Source: Bugula neritina
Taxonomy: Eukaryota > Animalia > Bryozoa
Assembly: GCA_964035545.1 (NCBI GenBank)
Contig: OZ037772.1
Coordinates: forward strand, 11,344,818 to 11,408,817
Length of the DNA: 64,000 nucleotides
Direction: 5' to 3'
Below, piece after piece: positions 509-60,824 of the stretch. Within the stretch, counting starts at the first letter, position 1; every line of letters starts with the position of its first letter. Both the position numbers and the translations under genes were made by a program. The notes beneath the pieces are model-generated. The model was not told the origin of the DNA and ran no database searches. It saw only the letters and a program-made list of their open reading frames with translations.

Positions 509-1776
509 TTGTCAATAGATGCAATGGATTGTGGGTAAATACTCTTGAGCTTGCCGACCACAAACTTGTGCAGGGTGTCATAACTCTGAGTGGAGTTGTA
601 GGATATCACGTGTTTCTTTGGCTTAGAATCAGCAGTATGCGACGGAATGAACTAGAACACAGAGAGTTAGAGCTTCACTAGTTGAATGAATAAATGGTGG
701 CGGGGGGTTGGGGGGGGGGTTGGCCCGCCTTGAAAGGTAAATTTAGAATAACTGAACAAAGCTAACTGACAGAAAATGAATTTGGCAACTAAGAAATAGT
801 TACAGAAACTAAAGAATCTGGTGCACACTCAACACTACTTAACGGCACGGAAAGGCAATAGAACAGAACATGACTGACTACTTAAACTTGTAACTAATTT
901 CGGTAAAAACAATATCTTGAGGAGGAACTGAAAGCCGGAATACTCACAGTGAGGGTGGGATAAGCCACGATCCCGTGATCTCTGCAGACAGCAGCATTGC
1001 TCTCTTTGGCACAGTTGATGGCAGAGACCTGGACATACTTGGAGAGTCCTGAAGAAGAGATCAGAGTATGAGATAGTGTACAGAGACAGATAGACATAGA
1101 GAGACAGCAGAAGAAGACGGGACACTATAGCACTCACCCTTTAGGTTGGTGGCAGTGGATGTGTATAGTGGAACATAGTCTATGCAGTGTCCACACCATG
1201 ACAGATAGAACAATACCAACCAACAGCTCTCAGAGTTCTGCACCTTTCCATAGAAACTGTCGACCTCCAAGTTAACCACTGGCCCGCCATCTGCAATATC
1301 ACAACGAGGCTGTAAACAAGACAGTCTCTTCATGTTGCATAAAATTTGTAAATACAATAACCATACTGCAACAGTATTAGACTGAGGACCTATTGCTATG
1401 CAGCAAGCCTCAGGCTTACTGTTCCAAGACCATTTATAGCAATTTTTTCTTACTAGAGCACTTAAGAAACATTATAATTATTCAAAATTGTAAGTTTTTT
1501 GTAGCACATTACATAAACTTCTTGTAAATTTATTCAGCGAGATAACAACTTCTAAATATATTAAATATTTCAAAAAACACCAAATACCCATCTACCTACT
1601 AGCTCTTCGTATAAACTGCTTTAATAAATACCTGGATACAGATTGTTGGTGTTTTTAGCACCTGGCGCAGCCGCCAGGCCGCTGATAGACACAAACAGTA
1701 GAAACAGGAGGAGCGTCAGGTGAGAGTTGTAGCGCTGACAACTCCAGCTAGTAGCATAGGATGTAGTATCCACCAT
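509..1776 (-). CDS. QSOX: Quiescin sulfhydryl oxidase, 5' part (signal peptide + Trx1 domain); gene presumably continues beyond the left edge
   Basis: Phase-consistent GT-AG exons 1776-1632, 1290-1138, 1048-948, 651-509. They encode a hydrophobic leader (LTLLLFLLFVSISGLAA), then NLYPDGGPVVNL..F...V.NS...WLVLFYLSWCGHCI.Y.P and AINCAKESNAAVCRDHGIVAYPTLTFIP, which match the QSOX Trx1 region (WCGHC; xCAxExNxxVCR). The next exon was not identified within 1-508. Confidence 0.88.
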
Positions 1777-20089: not shown

Positions 20090-23000
20090 CTACGACGGCG
20101 AGAATGATGACACCGTTGATGTATTGGATGATGCTGAATGGGTGGCGAGTGTTGCTATAGAAACTGTATCCATAGCAACTGTCACCATGGCGTTGCTAGG
20201 CACTAACAGACTCTCACTAGAGTTGAAGCTTGTTGACAGATGTTGTTCTATGGGAACTCTGTGTAAAAAATTATAACACAATATTATTTAAAAGAACACA
20301 AAAATTGTGTAGCTGTGAAGCTCTATTTTACTAGACAATTTATACACTTATAATTATTCCACTATTAAACACCTACTTCATTTTTTTAGTATAATAATTA
20401 TTTCCTTTACCTATCAAACTTTTGAAAAAGATAATTGCATGATTTGGAAGTGGGAGCAAATCAATAAGCATAGGTGTATAAAACATAAAGACTAGCCATA
20501 TTTTGTTGTTTGCGTGAAATTTTTGCTAGCTGATTGTTCGAATATCTAATCAACGTGGACAGGCCTTTACTTATTAAATCATTGAATAAATATTATTATA
20601 TTATTATTTATAAATATTTTTTAATCAGTATATAAATACTACTCTACTAATTTCATCAGAGTAGGGTAATTTCGCTTTAGCATATCATACTTTGTCACAA
20701 CATTATCAATAAAATGTCATTGAGTACAACCCGTTACGATCATTGCCAGCATAAGAAACAGATATCAGTGGCAGCATGAGTCATACCTCTTCTGGTCATC
20801 TTGTGACTCGGTGTCGCTGGTGAGGTCATCGTTAGAGTTGGCGTCCTCATCGTTGAGTATCGACTGGTCCATTCCTCCGTCACCATTCACACTACCGTCA
20901 CCACGGCTCTCTCCGCAGATATCACTTTGACCTCTTCTGAACTTGGCTCTTGCATTTTGAAACCACACCTTAACAAGTCATTGAGAAAATGTTGTTGAGT
21001 CATGCTCATATATTTCATTATAGTGTGATGTCTAACCATAATCAGGCATATCATAGATTGTAAATGTATAAAACATTCTGAGGAAATTAAATATCAAATC
21101 CTCTGCATCATAGGTAAAAAAGTCTTCTTTATATATAATAATGTTTAGCTTACAATATCAATTGCATACATACAAGACTCTATTCATTAGGAGTTGTGCT
21201 CCTTTAATAAAATACTTGCTACTTAAAAACTATCAAATGAAAATCTTACCTGCAGAACTCGTTTGCTTAGCCCCGTCTTCTGTGAGAGTTGTTTAAGATC
21301 TTTGGCATCGGGATTGTGGTTGGCGGTGAAGTACGCCTTCATTACGTTGAGTTGGTGATGTTTAAATGACGTCCTCATTCTCTTTTGCTTGACTTGCTGT
21401 AGATGTGTGTGATTTGCTGTAGAACTCAATGACTGATGATAGCCTGGGGTACTCAAGGAATCTGTATCCAACATTGTCATTCCTGCATTATAATAATAGC
21501 CTTAGTTCTAATCTATCATATTTCTTTTATGTAGACTATACAACAATTTTTAAGAAAATAATGTTATAAAGTTCTGTAAAATTTAACAGTAAATCTATCC
21601 CACACACTAACGTACTGAAAGAAATGATATAATATGGTAAACGCCTAAAACGCGGGCAAGAGTTTCTAGGAATTACATAACAAGTATATGAAACATCAAT
21701 ATAACTGTCAGAAACCAGAACTGTTAATTACGCAAGAAAAACAACGTAGGTCACATAAACATAGCCTCTAGTGCATCTGACTGTTATGTAGAGAATCATA
21801 CCTATGTGTGGCCAAGTGCTTTCTTCATTTCCTGTCGTCGAATTGAAAGAGTTATTGAGTTGTCTTCTCTTTTTTGACTTCTGAGGTTTGGTAACAGAAG
21901 ACTGAGTTTCCGCTGAGCTACCTAAAGGGTAAGTGATGTGAGGAAGGCGGGTGGTGTAGTCTACGAACCCCGAATCATCGTATTGAGTATTGTTAGAACT
22001 AAGGTTAGAGTCTAATGGTATGGCTGGTGTCAACTCGCCGATGCACTGACTAACGGCGAGGTTGCTAGAGATCGAGTTTAGAGAATCTGGGATGGCGGAG
22101 AGAGCAATGTTAGGATTTCTGTTGACAGTCTCGAGTGTGACTGGGGAGTGGAGAGCCTCGTATTGCAGTTGTTCAAAGTCTAATCTGCAAAATATTTTGT
22201 CATCACAGACTCCGAAATGGTCCCCGGTATGCAGACGGCAGTTGCAGACGTGACAAGTGAAGCATTGAACGTGAAAGACATTAGACTGAGCTCTCATCAC
22301 CATTTCCCCGGACTGGATGGGCTCATGGCATCGACAACACTTCTGCATCCCAAACTTTCTGCAATAACGTCATATAATCTTAGGCTATATAGTGGTCTAG
22401 AAAACACATTGGAAAAGTCTATAGCAGTGTAACAATACAGAAACAGTCGTGTTTAACAGCTGTGTAACATCAGGGGCTCTATTAATTCTGTCTGCAGTTG
22501 AAAGTTCACTACATAGACGGAACCCATGTTGCTTATTTGCTAAAAAATTTTAAATTCAACAATTTATTACCAACAAAAAGTTTCTGTCAAAACGGTCAAA
22601 AGCCTGTTTGAAACTTTCTAAAAACGACTTTTTTACAAAATAACAAAATATGCTATTGACATTGTATTAATAATTGGTTACTGTGTTAATACAACAGATA
22701 GCCCCACAAAAAGGTTGATTTGTCTTTCTATTGTATTACAATAAAATTAAACCATATGTGTAGACAACTCTAAACCATTAGCATCATATTTAATAACATG
22801 TTTGCATTCTAATTACTCCCACATTACTTGGCCTTTTTAGATACTAACAGGCTTTAAAGAGGTTTTATTAAAATGGAAACTAATAACAAAAGAAAAACTG
22901 AAATACTAACAGGAAGTAGTCTTTCTTGCAGTAGATCCGAGAGTCCTTGACATAGCAAGAGCCTTCAGTCTCCAGCAGCTTTGAGCAGATGTAGCACTTG

Positions 23001-26000
23001 AGGCAGGAGTCATGCCACTTCCTGTCCAGGGCAAACAGGAAGTACTTTTCACTGATGTCTTCGCCACACCCTGCACATCCTCTCTCATCAATCATGGACA
23101 GGAGTGGACTGCTGAAGAAGTTCTGTAACAGGAAACAACTCTGATTAAAAGCCTGTTGTATGCTGATGTCAAAGTTCAAGGTTGACTGAAGGTCAGCAGG
23201 TGCTCTGGAATCTTAAAAAAGTTAGAAAGAATAAATGAAGTTTGAATATTTTCAAAAAAATCCATTTGAGCTTATTTATATGCCTAAATACTTGGAAACT
23301 GAGGAAAACAAAGTAGTATATGCAGTTTTAACTGCACAGTTATTTATAAAGTACTTGAATACTTTAATAGTACTTGAGTAGTACTTGGTTACCCCATATT
23401 TTATTGGAAGATGACAAGGTTTAAATTCGAGGTATATGGTATGAAAACCATGCAATAACTAACTGGTAATCAACATTGTAAACGGAGTTGTCCCACTCCA
23501 ACTAATAATCTACATGTTTTCCACATCCATTTATGCAATTCTCTGCAATATTTATGCTACTCCATCTTCTAGATTCTAGAACATACTCTCTAGATACTAA
23601 CAATGTACTTAATGTTGTGGCCAGATTCAAGAGCTATTTGAGATCACATAGATTTTTCATCTAAGAATTCAACATTATAATAGTCATCCATTATATCCAG
23701 CATAAAAACCAAACAAAATAAGGCAATTATACTATCAGTATAACATGACAAAGCAAGATATTACAAGCACCTGATGTGCTATGTCAGCTCAGGGGACTAT
23801 CAAGTGCTTATAGTAAATCTACATGTTAGCCGCCCCTCATCTTGAGAGTGACAGGTCTGACAGGCATGTGACTCAAGAGAGTGACACACAGGGCAAGTTA
23901 TCGACAGGTTGTCGTGTAGTCAGTCTCTAATCTAATATAGATATCAATCACAGTAGCGGGTTTGGCAGCTAAATGAGAACTGATTTAGGAATTCTGTTCA
24001 ACCTCTAGCTGTATACTTATTTCAAAGTTGTGCAAAAGTTGAAACTAACTTCACGCTTGAGTGGATTTACCCATACACAATAAACCGCATGTGGTGATCC
24101 ACACGGCCAGAATTTCATAATTTTAACCAAGTACTGTATTCCCTACTCATTCCTATGAATGCTAACCTACTCAATAAAAATAGCAAAGAAGATATAGAAT
24201 AGTAGAGTAATACTAAACTGTAAAGCAATAAACATTTGATGGGCATTGCAGGATGTTGTGTAGCCATTTCAGCTATCAATGAATGCTCTAGTATTACGGG
24301 ACTCCAGCATTGCCCCTGAAAAGGATGCTGTATTATTCAAAGAACTTGGACTACCAACTGGCATATATGATTCATGCTATAACAGAACAAAGCAAAGGAG
24401 CGGCAGCAACAGCAACAGCAATAACCTTGCATTATCTAAGATATTACATTATTCTCTGTGAGGAAACAGCATAGGGATGGGTGCTGCCGAATACAATATC
24501 AGATATTTGTCTAGTTTAGAGTTCACTACAACACACAACTGATGATATAAATAGATGTACATACTCCCTTACATTTAGAGAACAAATTGGTTCAACACTC
24601 TTATAGCTCCAAAGTGCAAAAATTTTGTATATTAAGCTTGTGATTGAAGATTTAAAATTTAAAAATAAATCTAATTGATTTTGTGTTCAAAAGGAAATTC
24701 TAATACTTTTGACATAACTTCTTATCTCTTACATACACGATGTGTCATACTGGAGTCCAGGCATAGGGGGAGTGGGGGGGGGGAGCGCCCCTTCCCATTC
24801 CTTTAGTAGATTAGATAGTTTATTTGCTCAGTCACTAGTCAATGTACAGTTTAACTATTGTCAGGTAACAATAGCACATTAAACAATACTCTACATCCTA
24901 TTGCAGTGCCAGTACACAATCACAAAGCTACGGGTACTTAAACATTGATCTCCACACCTGCCCATTGTCTTATAGATATATTAACCATTGATATCCAATA
25001 TTGTATCATTAGCCATTGATTTCTCTTTGTAGATACTCATTCGATCAGAGCTCATTGCTTTCATTACTCATTGATTAACTGCTCTGATAATTTGTATACA
25101 CCCAATGTTATATAATATTAATTTTATTAGTATTCAATACACTAATTCTTGCCTAGCAAGAAAATAATCAGGCTTCAAATCTCTTTTACACTTCAGCCTT
25201 ATCAGAGAATTAAAGGCTAAATAATATAATCTACACCAGTTGCATAATATGGCTATGGGTATTAAATAACTTATAAATTTCATAATTTTAAGCATTTTAA
25301 ATTATAGTCAAACTACTCATAATTAATAAAAGATAGTTATAGCTAATAAATATTCTATTTTGTTTTTTTTTAAACTTTACTTCTTTGTTTTATATTAATT
25401 TTTAAAAACTTTGGGCATGATAGTAAAATGCATTTTCAACAATAAATTAGACACAATGTATTGCAAACAGCCACATGTAGCAAACATACTCTAATCTTTA
25501 TAACTTTTATCAACATCATTCAAACTTTAGAATACTTATAAAACCCCTCACCAAGTGTGAAACACTGTGTGCACCCTGAGGGCAGCTTGGATGGTTTTTT
25601 ATGCATGGAAGCTGTTGAAAAAATGACAGGACTTTATATTAGGTTTTCTTTTTATTTCATTTTCAATTAAAAACTAAAGAATTATATTTTAAACCTGCAG
25701 TTTTTGTCATTCAGAAAACTCAAACTAAAAAATTCCCCCTCAGCTTTTGAATTTTTAAAACTGGGAGTTGTTTATTTATATATTGGAAATCAATTATCTA
25801 TTTACTCGGTAAACTTATGATAAAATTCAGACAAGTTCTACAATTGTTATAGGTTTACAAATCATTTGTTTCAGAAACTGCAATATCTAGCAATAAGCTA
25901 TAGCATATGTTGAAATTTTAGATATGCCAATTTAAAAAGCTATTTCCAAGTTTGCCATTTGTTTCTATGCGTATCACAATGTATTTCAGAAATATTTGAA

Positions 26001-36437: not shown

Positions 36438-36629
36438 GAGGAATATGATGTGAGCTAATTCAGAAGTTCATAATGGCTATTGTAGCACATACGGAGCACC
36501 TGCTATCCACCTGCACATGTGTTCATCCTTCAGTAGCAGACGTCCATGTGTCAGTCTATAACTTTATATGTCAACCGAAACATAGCAGGGTATTATGGTT
36601 CTACACTGCAAAGCACTATATGTTAATTG

Positions 36630-37240
36630 TTAACTACACTACACCACACTAAACTACACTACACTACACTACACTACACTACCCTACACCACACTACACT
36701 ACACTACACTACACTACACTACACTACACTACACTACACCACACCACACTACACTACACTACACTACACTACACTACACTACACTACACTACACTACTAC
36801 ACACTACATTATACTACACTACACTACACCACACCACACTACACTACACTACACTACACTACACTACACTACACTACACCACACCACACCACACCACACT
36901 ACACTACACTACACTACACTACACTACACTACACTACTACACACTACATTATACTACACTACACTACACTACACTACACTACACTACACTACACTACACT
37001 ACACTACACTACACTACACTACACTACACTACACTACACTACACTACACTACACTACACTACACTACACTACCCTACACCACACTACACTACACTACACT
37101 ACACTAAAATACAATACAATACACTACACTACACTACACTAAAATACAATACAATACACTACACTACAACACACTATACAATATACACCACACTACACTA
37201 TACATTGCACTACACTGCACTGCACGTTGCACTACACTAA
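36630..37240. repeat. (ACACT)n pentanucleotide satellite
   Basis: About 600 bp of actac/acact units; source of the HYTTL ORF. Confidence 0.95.
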
Positions 37241-38699: not shown

Positions 38700-54937
<16,238 letters not shown>

Positions 54938-56054
54938 TAGCAGCTCTCTCATTGGTCTACGCGTTGCTAGTATGGCTGTGATTGGCTGGCTTCATCCACC
55001 AGTTGTTTTGCAGTTTACAAGATGCCATCGAGTCGCGGAACCTGCACGTGGTCTAGTCTACCCATGGCTCTACACACCTACATACTATTGTGCTCTGTAT
55101 TCTTGCTGCGTGTCCGGAGGACACACAGACAGACACCCTCTGCTCAATCTAGTTTATATCAGAAGAAACTCTTGGCTTAGTTTTAGAGTCGTTGACGAGT
55201 CAAGTTTTTAGCTTTCTCTAACCACCCACCCCATCTTAACTCGCGTTAGCGTTACCTCATCAGCACTGTTCATTTTTAGCAAAACTACTTTTTCTTTTTT
55301 TTGTATAGACAATATAACTTTATATAATTATTTTTAGATAGGTTAATTTTATTGTTGAAGTATAATTATAGTAATTGACTTATATTTGAGTACGTGACAT
55401 AATTTATATACAATATTTTTCATTTCTATTACTCTAGCGGTCATACAAAAGGTTTTATACTTTGAGTTTGCAGTATTGTTGACAAACGGAATTATTCATT
55501 TCTTCTTATCTAGTGTCGCAGGCACTTGCAGGCACTTGGTGGCATGGAGCATTTGATACAAGTACTTGCAGGCACCTGCAGCCACATATCAGGGTACCTG
55601 CAAGCATTTACTATTTTTGACTACTACTAATCTCACTTCATATCTTCAACATATTTATATAGCCTACTTTTGTATATTTTTTGTTGTTTTCTGTCAGATG
55701 TACAAAATAAATTAATTTACTACTGATGAATATATGCTGTGTTGGTATGAAACTTTTTTCAGCTTTCAATTGTATTTGTATATAATTTACGGTATCTGTA
55801 AGAAAATCCATTCACAGTAAGGAATTTAATTGTAAATGAAAACCTACACGTTTGCTAAAGGCGGTGAAAGGTGACCATGTTTTATAGCAATAAACGTGTA
55901 CAATGAAAGTTTGCATGTATTATATTTCTGGTCATATGCAACTGTTTAGTATAATATGCTTTTGAGAAGTCTTTGAAAATCAATGTTGAATTCCCGATTA
56001 TATTTTATTCTAAGGCAATACAAAATGAAACTCAAAAGTTAGACAACTCCGTCA

Positions 56055-58728
56055 TTACTTGCTTCCAGCTGCTGCCGGTGCCTTGTTGGGGAAGATTACA
56101 TCCAGGTCATTGCAGGCTCTGCAAGAACACACAGGGTAGATATCTAGTCTGAGGGGTTACTATACATGATAGATAATAAATATATATACATGTAACATTA
56201 ATATAATATATTATATTAGCCTATATGCAATATAATTATATTTATATTTCATGTATTATATCATACAGTGACTAAATATTATATTAGATATTCATATAAA
56301 TATCATATATTACTAGATGCATTCCCTTTACCATATGGTCTCTGGTGGAAACACAATTTGAACAATTGCCTTGGTTCTAGAGTGTATAACCATAGAGTAA
56401 GTAGGGGGGACTTACGCGCAGGACCTGTAGCAGTTCTCATGCATCCAGTGGAAGTAGGGGCTACCAATGTGACAATGTCCAAGTTTTATGTGGTTCTGGC
56501 ACTTAGTCATACTTACAGTGTCTTTACACAAAGCTGAAAGCAAAAACGGCATCATTGGTTAGAGTTTTACTACGTTATTTATCATTTTCTTTACTATATG
56601 CTATGAAAAACTATTAAATTTAATATAATTATTATTATTTATTATAGCATATCAATGAATATAAAATAATACTCTGCTCTTTTATTTACGTCCTTTGTGA
56701 CATATCTTGTTGAAAACTATTGTATATTCGATAATTATTTTTTATGGCATATATCTCTTACAGTGTAGGATAGTCTACATATACCTAATGCTCTTATCTA
56801 TTTGTCATTGAAGTGCACTACAGTCTTTAATATATCATGATAAAAACAATATATTTATCCTCTATTGTTTTATATTACATATAGTTTACATATATCTTAT
56901 AGTTTAGGATATTATACTTTCCTTTGTATTACAGTGTATTATACAGCTGCATAACAAATATAGACTGTGACCAGGAAACTTATTGGGTGGTCTGGTAACT
57001 TACTGGGTGGTCTGGTGACAGGTGGTGGTCTATGGTGAAGGTCATCATATGACAGCTGACCCAGTTGGATGAGCAGAGTTACCAGCTCCTCTGTGGCTAG
57101 AGCGGCAGCTTGCTGCCGGGTGTAAAGTTCATCAAGTATAATGTAATGCCAGAAGTATTTTATTAAAATGTGGTGTAACTCAGTGAGTGCTACGAACAAT
57201 ATCCAGCTTATTGTGTGTTAAATTTGGCAAAAGTTTCAGTTAATCAACATAATAATATGTCTGCCAAACATGCTATATGTATATTGGACATTGGATACTA
57301 TGAAAAGTATTATATATACTATAAGTCTATATGAATATGTTATACTGTATATTCTATATACAGTATAAACTGTTATATAAACTGTATATTATATAGCCTA
57401 TATTGTATGCTGTATAATTTATATGGTATATAATATATTATACCGTACTGTATTATACTATAATATATACCATATATTGTACACTGTATGTACTGTGCAA
57501 ACTGTATATATCATAAACGTACTGTGCTGTATTACAGAAAGTGTACGTATATATATGTATATTATATTCCATATAATATTGTACACTGTATATCTTATTA
57601 TAACAGCGCTGTATTGTATTACAGAAAGTGTGTACAATATACTGTATATCTCATTATAAACGTACTGTGCTGTCTTACAGAAAGTGTATAAAATATACTG
57701 CATATCTTATTATAAACGTACTGTACTGTATTACAGAAAGTGTATACAATATACTGTATATCTTATTATAACCGTACTGTACTGTATTACAGAAAGTGTA
57801 CATCCATATATACTTACTGCACTGTCATTTGCACACTTAGTTGACTTGTACCCAGTATCTCTGTCCGTCACACTGGCACAGTTTCCTTCCACCACAATCC
57901 TCATAGCTCTGTTAGAAATCACCGTCTGAAAATAGTATTTGTATCTATATGTTATATATTACGGAGCATAGGTTATACAGCGTAGAGCAAAGAGTATAGA
58001 GCATAGAGTAGGCTATAGAGTATACAGTATGAAGTATAGAGTATATAATGTAGAATATAGAGTACAGTGTATAGAACATTGAGCAAAGAGTATAGAATAT
58101 ATATTCATACGTACATCCTTGACATTGTTGGGTCCATTAATGCCGCTGAAGAACCCGGCAAGGCCATTAAGTACGGTGCTTGCAATAGCTACTCCGGCTA
58201 TAACTGATCTCTTCTCCTCGTATGTCAGTTTAACCTCTTTTTTATCCTCAGAATTCACCAGGAACAGCAGGCAGCATAGGCCTATGACAATCAGCAAATT
58301 ATTGTCAACATGATATCACATATCATATAATATCATATAAATGAGTGACCACCTATAGCAAGTGATTGTGTGACATCACATAGCAGGTGAATTAATGTTT
58401 GACATCACATAATGTGTGAGTGCGTATGACACTATATAGCAGGTGAGTATGTATGTGTGGGCGTGGTATGCGTGGGCGTGGTATGGAGCATGCTAATTTG
58501 AACAATGGTTAAGATTTTGAAGTTCTCCAGAGAAACAAAATGGCTACACGACTGATTTGATTGTGTGGGAACAGCAGAGATTAGTTGCATGCGCATCAAA
58601 TATACTATAGCCAACTTACCTTGTAATTTATTTATTAAACTTATTTACTTACCTGTGAAATACATTAAAGAACTATAAGATGAATCTTACTTACCACAAG
58701 CTATTCTTGTCACAGATAAATTAACCAT
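56055..58728 (-). CDS. Unannotated secreted preproprotein (199 aa): signal peptide, KR-ending propeptide, ALF-like region, Pro linker, ShKT domain
   Basis: GT-AG exons 58728-58695, 58281-58115, 57925-57818, 57112-57004, 56533-56416, 56118-56055 total 600 nt, all phases consistent. Protein: MVNLSVTRIACGLCCLLFLVNSEDKKEVKLTYEEKRSVIAGVAIASTVLNGLAGFFSGINGPNNVKDTVISNRAMRIVVEGNCASVTDRDTGYKSTKCANDSAQAAALATEELVTLLIQLGQLSYDDLHHRPPPVTRPPTLCKDTVSMTKCQNHIKLGHCHIGSPYFHWMHENCYRSCAACNDLDVIFPNKAPAAAGSK*. ShKT pattern C-x8-C-x8-C-x13-C-x3-C-x2-C with CxD and WMxxNC. AATAAA on the minus strand at 56004-56009. Confidence 0.85.
57480..57800. repeat. ~56-60 bp tandem repeat in intron 3 of the ShKT gene
   Basis: Several copies of ACTGTATATCTTATTATAAACGTACTGTGCTGTATTACAGAAAGTGT. 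Confidence 0.85.
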
Positions 58729-59635: not shown

Positions 59636-60824
59636 TTAGCTGGAGAGGTATCCCCTAGAATGAAAAAGATCAAAACTTATTGAAAATGTATTCTTATGCC
59701 TAAAAGATATGCTAAAATATTAACTTAGAGAAGCGACCTAAGGCTAAGCTCATAGTTCTCTAGTATACATAGAAACAGAAACCGAAGTCTACAGCTTGTG
59801 CCTTTTGAGTTCATTTTAGAATTTGTAGACCTGATGGAATTTTTGTTTTTATAAATTTTGCAGTTAAAAGCACCTTCATTTATGTACAAAAGTAAACATA
59901 AGGACACAATTTTGACACAATACCGAAAGAAAAACGGCTGACCATCTGTCGGAGAAAAGCTGGAAGATGCCAAGCAGTCAAATGATATGAACATGACAAG
60001 ACAACAGTATCCTTATGCTATACTTACACCATACACACTGTATAATCTATGTATGCTCACAAAATCCACACGCTATACTTACGGTAATTTCATTCTCATG
60101 AACACTCGAAGCATAAAGAACGAGAGGAGAATACTCCCAATGCCCGTCATCAACAACAGTATTCTGTTTAGTTTAGGAGTGAGAGGGTTGTTAGTCTGGT
60201 CTAGGATGATGAAGCCCATTCCACCGAGAGCAAAGAGAAAACTAGAGGCTAGGCCTTCCATTATATACTGAGCATTGATTCTGTAAGGCATGAAGGCTAC
60301 GGGACGAGAATGGCCCCTCTCATCTGTGGTAGAGCCGATGCTTGGAGGCTCAACTATCACATCATAAATTACACCTACAAGTAAAAAGCAGACGGCCGGT
60401 TCATAATTCATACAAAAGCAATTCATAAATGTTGCTCTGTTAGTCAATCAACAAAACAGCTATATTATATATTACTATATCAATATGAGAAACCTTTAAA
60501 ATTTAGTCACGTCTTACTCCTAACTCTTATTTCAGTAGCAAGAATGGTTTTTCTATCTCATCATTTATTAATTAGACCTATTAAGAAGTTACGTAAATAT
60601 TTACCAGTTGTGATTCACACTCATATCGAATGTTTAAAGCTACAGATATAAAATGTAATCATTTAGGAGTAAGTCTCACCTCCTGTAACAAGAAAATATG
60701 AAACCATAGCTACACCAAACACAGTCATCGCAGAGGGCATTTTTAAAAAGCCTGGCTTTTTAATTTTTAAATTTGGTTGCTCTAGAACCTTGAACGGTGC
60801 GGTATACAAAAATCCTAAGACCAT
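59636..60824 (-). CDS. OSTC: Oligosaccharyltransferase complex subunit OSTC/DC2, 151 aa
   Basis: Exons 60824-60680, 60374-60083, 59654-59636. [19 protein letters not shown]...[66 protein letters not shown]...[12 protein letters not shown] matches OSTC. Confidence 0.96.

Follow-up and report, generated by a model that had tools for sequence, protein, structure and literature searches.

Anti-lipopolysaccharide factors (ALFs; PF11630) are secreted proteins in which one N-terminal and two C-terminal helices lie on a four-stranded sheet, strands 2 and 3 forming a hairpin closed by a disulfide, and whose N-terminus is highly hydrophobic (PMC10672452). The same α-ββββ-αα order is stated in PMC10608444. 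By definition, two conserved cysteines close a central β2-β3 hairpin of 20 residues, and in 2018 the family seemed restricted to crustaceans and marine chelicerates (PMC6213531). A 2025 review still treats ALFs as arthropod peptides (PMC11767717). We describe a gene on the minus strand of a 64,000-nt stretch of Bugula neritina DNA (contig OZ037772.1; the whole stretch is called the window, and positions are counted in it). Its product would carry a signal peptide, a spacer ending in Lys-Arg (KR), a middle domain of predicted ALF-like fold, a Pro-rich linker and a ShKT domain. The reading we favor is that of a secreted, membrane-active host-defence effector combining a divergent ALF-fold domain with a C-terminal ShKT, and its probability is put at roughly one half.

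Exon structure and conservation of the gene

An earlier note, made from the sequence alone, had joined six short exons in phase into a protein of 199 residues. The nine peptide motifs searched from that note all occur once, on the minus strand and within positions 56055-58728. As read from the DNA, the six exons span 58728-56055 and total 600 nt, equal to 199 codons and a TAA stop. All five introns have GT...AG ends, with sizes of 413, 189, 705, 470 and 297 nt and phases of 1, 0, 0, 1 and 2. The GC content is 0.46-0.55 in exons 2-6 against 0.26-0.35 in the introns, and 0.32 in exon 1; the window as a whole is AT-rich and of animal type. Introns 2 and 3 contain AT-rich short repeats (57300-57810 and 57970-58100), also matched by many contigs of run X1, and read-through of these repeats gives rise to low-complexity open reading frames (ORFs), which clutter searches against proteins.

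A search with exon 3 gave two proteins among 151 candidates, one of which is XP_067941155.1 of Watersipora subatra, a 199-residue 'uncharacterized protein'. The peptides of exons 2-6 map on it in order, at residues 17-66, 67-104, 105-140, 142-179 and 181-199. A single residue stays uncovered at introns 4 and 5, precisely where a codon is split, and at the two phase-0 introns the mapped peptides abut directly. For the five exons the identities are 23/47, 26/36, 28/36, 27/38 and 8/19, and in each case none of 500 shuffles reaches the score. The match of exon 1 to residues 8-18 is weak (4/11 identical; score reached in 20 of 500 shuffles). No shorter relative of this orthologue emerged from 296 candidates.

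The same gene structure is seen in a metagenome contig (L001), one of at least 596 pattern matches listed, which carries exons 2-5 at 51-71% amino acid identity and a likely exon 6. Introns 2-5 are kept at identical splice positions and phases, and the intron sequences do not align. Over 144 codons the window and this contig differ at 42, 26 and 70 sites of codon positions 1, 2 and 3, giving proportions of synonymous and nonsynonymous differences (pS and pN) of 0.66 and 0.22 and a rough dN/dS of ~0.17, the synonymous sites being near saturation.

Homologues of exon 2 were collected with HMMER from 1.84 billion representatives, with a query of which half was intron read-through. Ten of the 101 matches, those covering the exon part and NG-x-x-NVKD, were retained; four of the other 91 were inspected and were low-complexity or unrelated. 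The ten retained sequences are genomic ORFs, one of them from the same gene as L001, and all ten close NG-x-x-NVKD with a Val that is read from a GT donor, so the donor of intron 2 is conserved. Arg stands immediately before the first helix in 11 of 11 homologues, as part of a dibasic KR or RR in nine. Two other leads were discarded: a PT-VENN match on exon 2 (E 0.049), which is absent from eight homologues, and an Acidobacteriaceae locus (39% over 51 residues), which runs opposite to a bacterial ORF of 260 aa and is regarded as a chance match. A search of viral contigs for relatives returned nothing.

The window contains one copy of the gene. Sequencing run X1 includes the stretch as a single identical genomic contig and may be where this DNA came from. 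In that run, at 80% likeness, bins inside exons 1-4 and 6 carry the source contig only, a level at which diverged paralogues would be missed, and slight additional depth appears at one bin of exon 5. Judged from the sequence, the gene is real, conserved and uncharacterised, and its exon arrangement is not due to chance. The in-phase union of the six exons thus holds, given the intron borders, the 600-nt total, the tiling on the orthologue and the shared splice sites of the metagenome contig.

The middle domain and the ALF fold

Structures were predicted with AlphaFold2 (AF2) for the W. subatra orthologue, as a stand-in for the window protein, with exon fragments as alignment rows. The model of the whole orthologue has a mean pLDDT (predicted local distance difference test) of 67.5 and a predicted TM score (pTM) of 0.45, with pLDDT 77-92 across residues 61-130. 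Its elements are a helix at 31-56, strands at 63-69, 72-79, 84-89 and 95-99, and helices at 103-120 and 126-129; these are followed by a linker modelled at low confidence and by a ShKT that is helical. The domain modelled alone shows the same order (mean pLDDT 72.9, pTM 0.60), and hence the α-ββββ-αα order of ALFs is predicted in both models.

Structural comparison leans in the same direction. The top of the best 10 rows in the Atlas structure search is a cluster of which 41% of the members carry PF11630 (86 residues; TM 0.59 by target and 0.38 by query), at a score under the tool's bar for naming. With VIA-align, the ALFPm3 structure 2JOB ranks fifth for the whole model, with 90 residues aligned, and second for the domain, with 89 aligned (model 1-98 on chain 2-97), in both cases the most aligned residues among the best 50 rows. 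The coarse exon partition also agrees. In shrimp ALF genes, out of three successive exons, the leader and α1 share the first, the four-stranded sheet occupies the second and the pair of C-terminal helices the third (PMC6213531). Exons 2, 3 and 4 divide the model in a roughly similar manner, with intron 2 falling within what is predicted as β1. By eye and with no statistic attached, ~38 residues up to the Gly ahead of α3 align without gaps to the ALFs of Table S1 in PMC6213531, in a register that shares the pattern A-T-x-[DE]-[FL]-V-x6-G-x-[IL]-[ST]-x-[DE]-D, and the β1-β2 turn likewise fits.

Several results weigh against this kinship. The Pfam hidden Markov model (HMM) for ALF found no match in the exons, the full orthologue or the domain at E up to 10, although HMMER filters hide weak matches. 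Foldseek gave no match at E ≤ 0.001 in the PDB or the viral models, and none of the rows listed was an ALF. The β2-β3 hairpin is by eye ~8-9 residues shorter than in ALFs, with both ALF cysteines replaced. The domain's only two cysteines are Cys84 at the start of β3 and Cys99 at the end of β4, 14 residues apart; β2 has none, and the hairpin disulfide of ALFs is therefore absent. The cationic cluster of ALFs is missing as well (6 K/R against 9 D/E), with a few conserved basic residues persisting in β2-β4. Unlike in ALFs, a spacer ending in KR or RR (9 of 11 homologues) separates the predicted signal peptide from the presumed mature part. Further searches were silent: PDB sequence searches for ALF gave nothing, another search gave three weak unrelated matches (E 0.25-0.93), and nothing usable came from the Atlas feature search with exon 2 or the orthologue.

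Since the hairpin disulfide, the cationic cluster and the HMM tests all fail, the protein is not a canonical ALF and stands outside the ALF family as defined. The middle domain is nevertheless rather probably a divergent homologue within the ALF superfamily. Cys84 and Cys99, placed opposite each other at the ends of β3 and β4 in the model, probably pair. In a four-Cys ALF-related sequence of L. vannamei, as aligned by eye, one extra Cys falls at the register of the first Cys here and another three residues from the second. The earlier assignment of the middle region to ALF is thus supported in part, by the predicted order of elements, the rank of 2JOB and the by-eye register of the C-terminal helices and β1-β2 turn; it is not supported by Pfam, by Foldseek, or by the disulfide and cationic hairpin. 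The shortening of that hairpin and the relocation of its Cys pair had both been foreseen.

Alternatively, the middle domain may be an independent α+β meander of the YkuJ/DUF1797, AP2 or dsRBD kind whose likeness to ALF is convergent, in a conserved, KR-processed bryozoan ShKT protein with a non-immune role in signalling or matrix. We hold this to be possible at clearly lower odds than homology. YkuJ (PDB 2FFG), a bacterial protein of 79 residues, aligns over just 72-74 residues (model 10-89) at 7-8% identity and ends before the third helix, with no evidence of kinship. ALF, in contrast, is secreted by animals, has an equal length, aligns over its full extent and tops the independent Atlas search, and the coarse exon partition and C-terminal motif spacing (the motif by eye) are common to both.

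The ShKT domain, and proposed processing and function

The earlier note had also placed a six-Cys ShKT domain behind the Pro linker. Against PF01549, exon 5 scores 18.4 bits (E 0.0033), under the cut-off of 20.9, in a query that lacks the sixth Cys; the exon of the metagenome contig gives 15 bits (E 0.037), and the full W. subatra orthologue gives no match to this model. With exon 6 the spacing is complete: the six cysteines stand at 143, 152, 161, 175, 179 and 182 of the orthologue, the spacing ends in C-x3-C-x2-C, and it is kept in three species. The domain therefore stands by its cysteines, while exon 5 alone stays below the Pfam threshold. Four His are invariant in the ShKT across the three species (56416-56533, minus strand, in the window; 1785-1902 in L001), with one or two more in the linker; these may possibly act as a metal or pH sensor.

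The Lys22-Tyr23 dyad ahead of the fourth Cys is held to be essential for Kv binding, yet certain ShKTs without it still modulate Kv1, so dyad loss does not preclude channel effects (PMC6409789). In three of three species His-Trp presumably occupies the dyad position. Aurelin, another ShKT without the dyad, has antibacterial activity and binds to anionic lipid (PMC10608444).

For the favored effector, the following mechanism is proposed. The predicted signal peptide would direct the precursor into the secretory pathway, and a convertase would cleave after the conserved KR to release a mature protein of ~163 residues beginning with the Gly/Ala-rich helix. A charged spacer ending in KR had been claimed; the KR site is present, but the charge of the spacer is mixed, with 5 D/E against 5 K/R including the KR. 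The helix that follows is uncharged, 23-26 residues long, with a mean hydropathy of ~1.9-2.1 over its best 19 residues and an amphipathic second half (moment 0.36-0.40). Together with the four-stranded sheet it would engage microbial membranes or envelope lipids, chiefly by hydrophobic contact rather than through a cationic clamp on lipopolysaccharide (LPS), because the hairpin is shorter, its disulfide is missing and the net charge of the domain ranges from neutral to acidic. Lipid A would thus not be clamped as it is by cationic ALFs, and anionic ALFs that bind LPS weakly are known (PMC3701609). The His-rich ShKT on its Pro linker would add surface or membrane binding, in the manner of aurelin, instead of plugging Kv channels, and by speculation its contribution may depend on pH or metal through the histidines.

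Given the strong conservation of the gene and the lack of any sign of expansion, a role in recognition or outside immunity may also be considered. It is conceivable, if unlikely, that the domain is a true ALF-superfamily relative that is no longer microbicidal and serves as a carrier or a recognition protein, for instance in lipid binding or symbiont management, while the ShKT provides docking. The loss of the cationic hairpin and the neutral to acidic charge agree with this, and anionic Group D ALFs, which likewise lack most of the cationic cluster, bind LPS 20-fold more weakly and are poorly antimicrobial (PMC3701609). What speaks for a membrane-active product instead is the propeptide with its conserved dibasic site directly before an uncharged Gly/Ala-rich helix. 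Such a propeptide and dibasic site are the usual means of silencing a membrane-active peptide until secretion.

A deterrent toxin against predators or competitors, its helix perturbing animal membranes and its ShKT modulating K+ channels, is improbable. The prepro layout with KR, the hydrophobic N-terminal helix (hydropathy 1.88 over the best 19 residues) and the ShKT domain would suit a toxin, as would the dyad-less ShKTs that act on Kv1 noted above. However, His-Trp presumably replaces Lys-Tyr, neither expansion of the gene nor rapid evolution shows in the window, run X1 or the comparison with the metagenome contig, and the PDB sequence search revealed no similarity to a solved toxin. Most improbable is that the post-KR helix anchors the protein in the membrane: its length, hydropathy and lack of charge would permit this, but a stop-transfer helix after a cleaved signal peptide would leave the ShKT, rich in disulfides, on the cytosolic side, the helix is amphipathic in its second half, and ALFs too have a highly hydrophobic N-terminus (PMC10672452).

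The locus and its relation to known systems

Features of the ALF-like/ShKT gene and neighbouring genes, with positions in the window
Feature	Position	Strand	Basis
Exon 1: ATG and initial 11 residues of predicted signal peptide, then phase-1 intron	58695..58728	-	Weak orthologue match; hydrophobicity suggests a signal peptide
Exon 2: end of signal peptide, spacer, KR site (58213-58208), Gly/Ala-rich hydrophobic α1 from 58207, NG-x-x-NVKD at start of β1	58115..58281	-	Donor shared by homologues; orthologue model
Exon 3: remaining β1 and β2-β4 of ALF-like sheet; both domain cysteines (β3 start, β4 end)	57818..57925	-	Orthologue identity and model
Exon 4: bulk of helix α2, short helix α3, Pro-rich linker	57004..57112	-	Orthologue identity; model helices 103-120 and 126-129
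Exon 5: ShKT Cys 1-5, four His common to three species, no Lys-Tyr dyad	56416..56533	-	PF01549 match below cut-off; alignments
Exon 6: ShKT Cys 6, short variable tail, TAA stop	56055..56118	-	Orthologue match
Candidate polyadenylation signal AATAAA, 45 nt past stop	56004..56009	-	Sequence match in AT-rich DNA
Thioredoxin-domain exon	1061..1471	-	E 4e-8
LIM-homeobox gene	21223..23212	-	Two LIM domains and homeodomain (Pfam)
Tyrosine kinase gene	~44014..54000	+	PK_Tyr_Ser-Thr, E 2e-11 for ORF at 47671
OST3/OST6-family exon	60079..60447	-	E 0.001

The tyrosine kinase gene, whose exon peptides resemble Abl, converges on the 3′ end of the ALF-like/ShKT gene. The OST3/OST6-family exon lies ~1.4 kb upstream of its ATG on the same strand, and hence the promoter region is short. 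Farther away, the LIM-homeobox gene is presumably of the Lhx2/9-apterous type, and the thioredoxin-domain exon presumably belongs to a QSOX-type sulfhydryl oxidase. Long simple-repeat tracts at 36627-37240, 40097-40739, 44631-45837 and 51671-52410 produce spurious long ORFs.

The literature searched, which lacks most subscription papers, contained in the portions available no description of this protein, of an ALF fold paired with a ShKT behind a propeptide, or of a non-arthropod ALF, nor any account of a gene-encoded effector of this kind from bryozoans. The claim that no ALF-like and ShKT fusion is known thus agrees with these sources. The chances seem evenly balanced that the gene is the first of the ALF superfamily outside arthropods and represents a bryozoan-wide family; that the scaffold reaches back to the protostome ancestor, or was transferred; that the disulfide-locked cationic LPS hairpin is an arthropod addition; and that the protein is a new convertase-activated defence chimera of ALF fold and His-rich ShKT. 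A conserved lophotrochozoan gene of ALF fold, if true, would change the origin of the family and reveal how the scaffold works when the LPS hairpin is absent. Bryozoans are known for chemistry made by their symbionts, and the gene is a concrete, expressible candidate for an effector in bryozoans.

The closest known sequence is the W. subatra protein, an orthologue or close homologue with the same length and architecture and 42-78% identity over exons 2-6; it comes from another species and has no functional name in the sources examined. With the ShKT proteins of PF01549, which include the ShK and BgK toxins, aurelin, CAP-ShKT and astacin-ShKT proteins, the gene product shares the six-Cys pattern as a C-terminal module, and with aurelin the lack of the dyad. 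It differs in having a partner that is neither CAP nor astacin, four invariant histidines and a score below the Pfam cut-off.

Among ALF relatives, the scygonadins, the anionic Group D, E and G ALFs and the shrimp ALF-related proteins with three or four Cys are likewise neutral or acidic members of the superfamily, and the scygonadins, with 17 residues between the cysteines, also have a shortened hairpin (PMC6213531, PMC3701609). These proteins keep the canonical Cys pair, however, and have neither KR propeptide nor ShKT. With the ALFs of decapods and horseshoe crabs (ALFPm3, PDB 2JOB) the bryozoan protein shares a domain of ~95 residues predicted to be secreted, the predicted α-ββββ-αα order with a hydrophobic N-terminal helix, a coarse three-exon division into α1, sheet and two helices, and the C-terminal helix motif in by-eye register. 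It departs from them in its relocated cysteines, its non-cationic hairpin without the β2-β3 disulfide around 20 residues, and its lack of an HMM match, and it adds a KR propeptide, a Pro linker and a ShKT domain.
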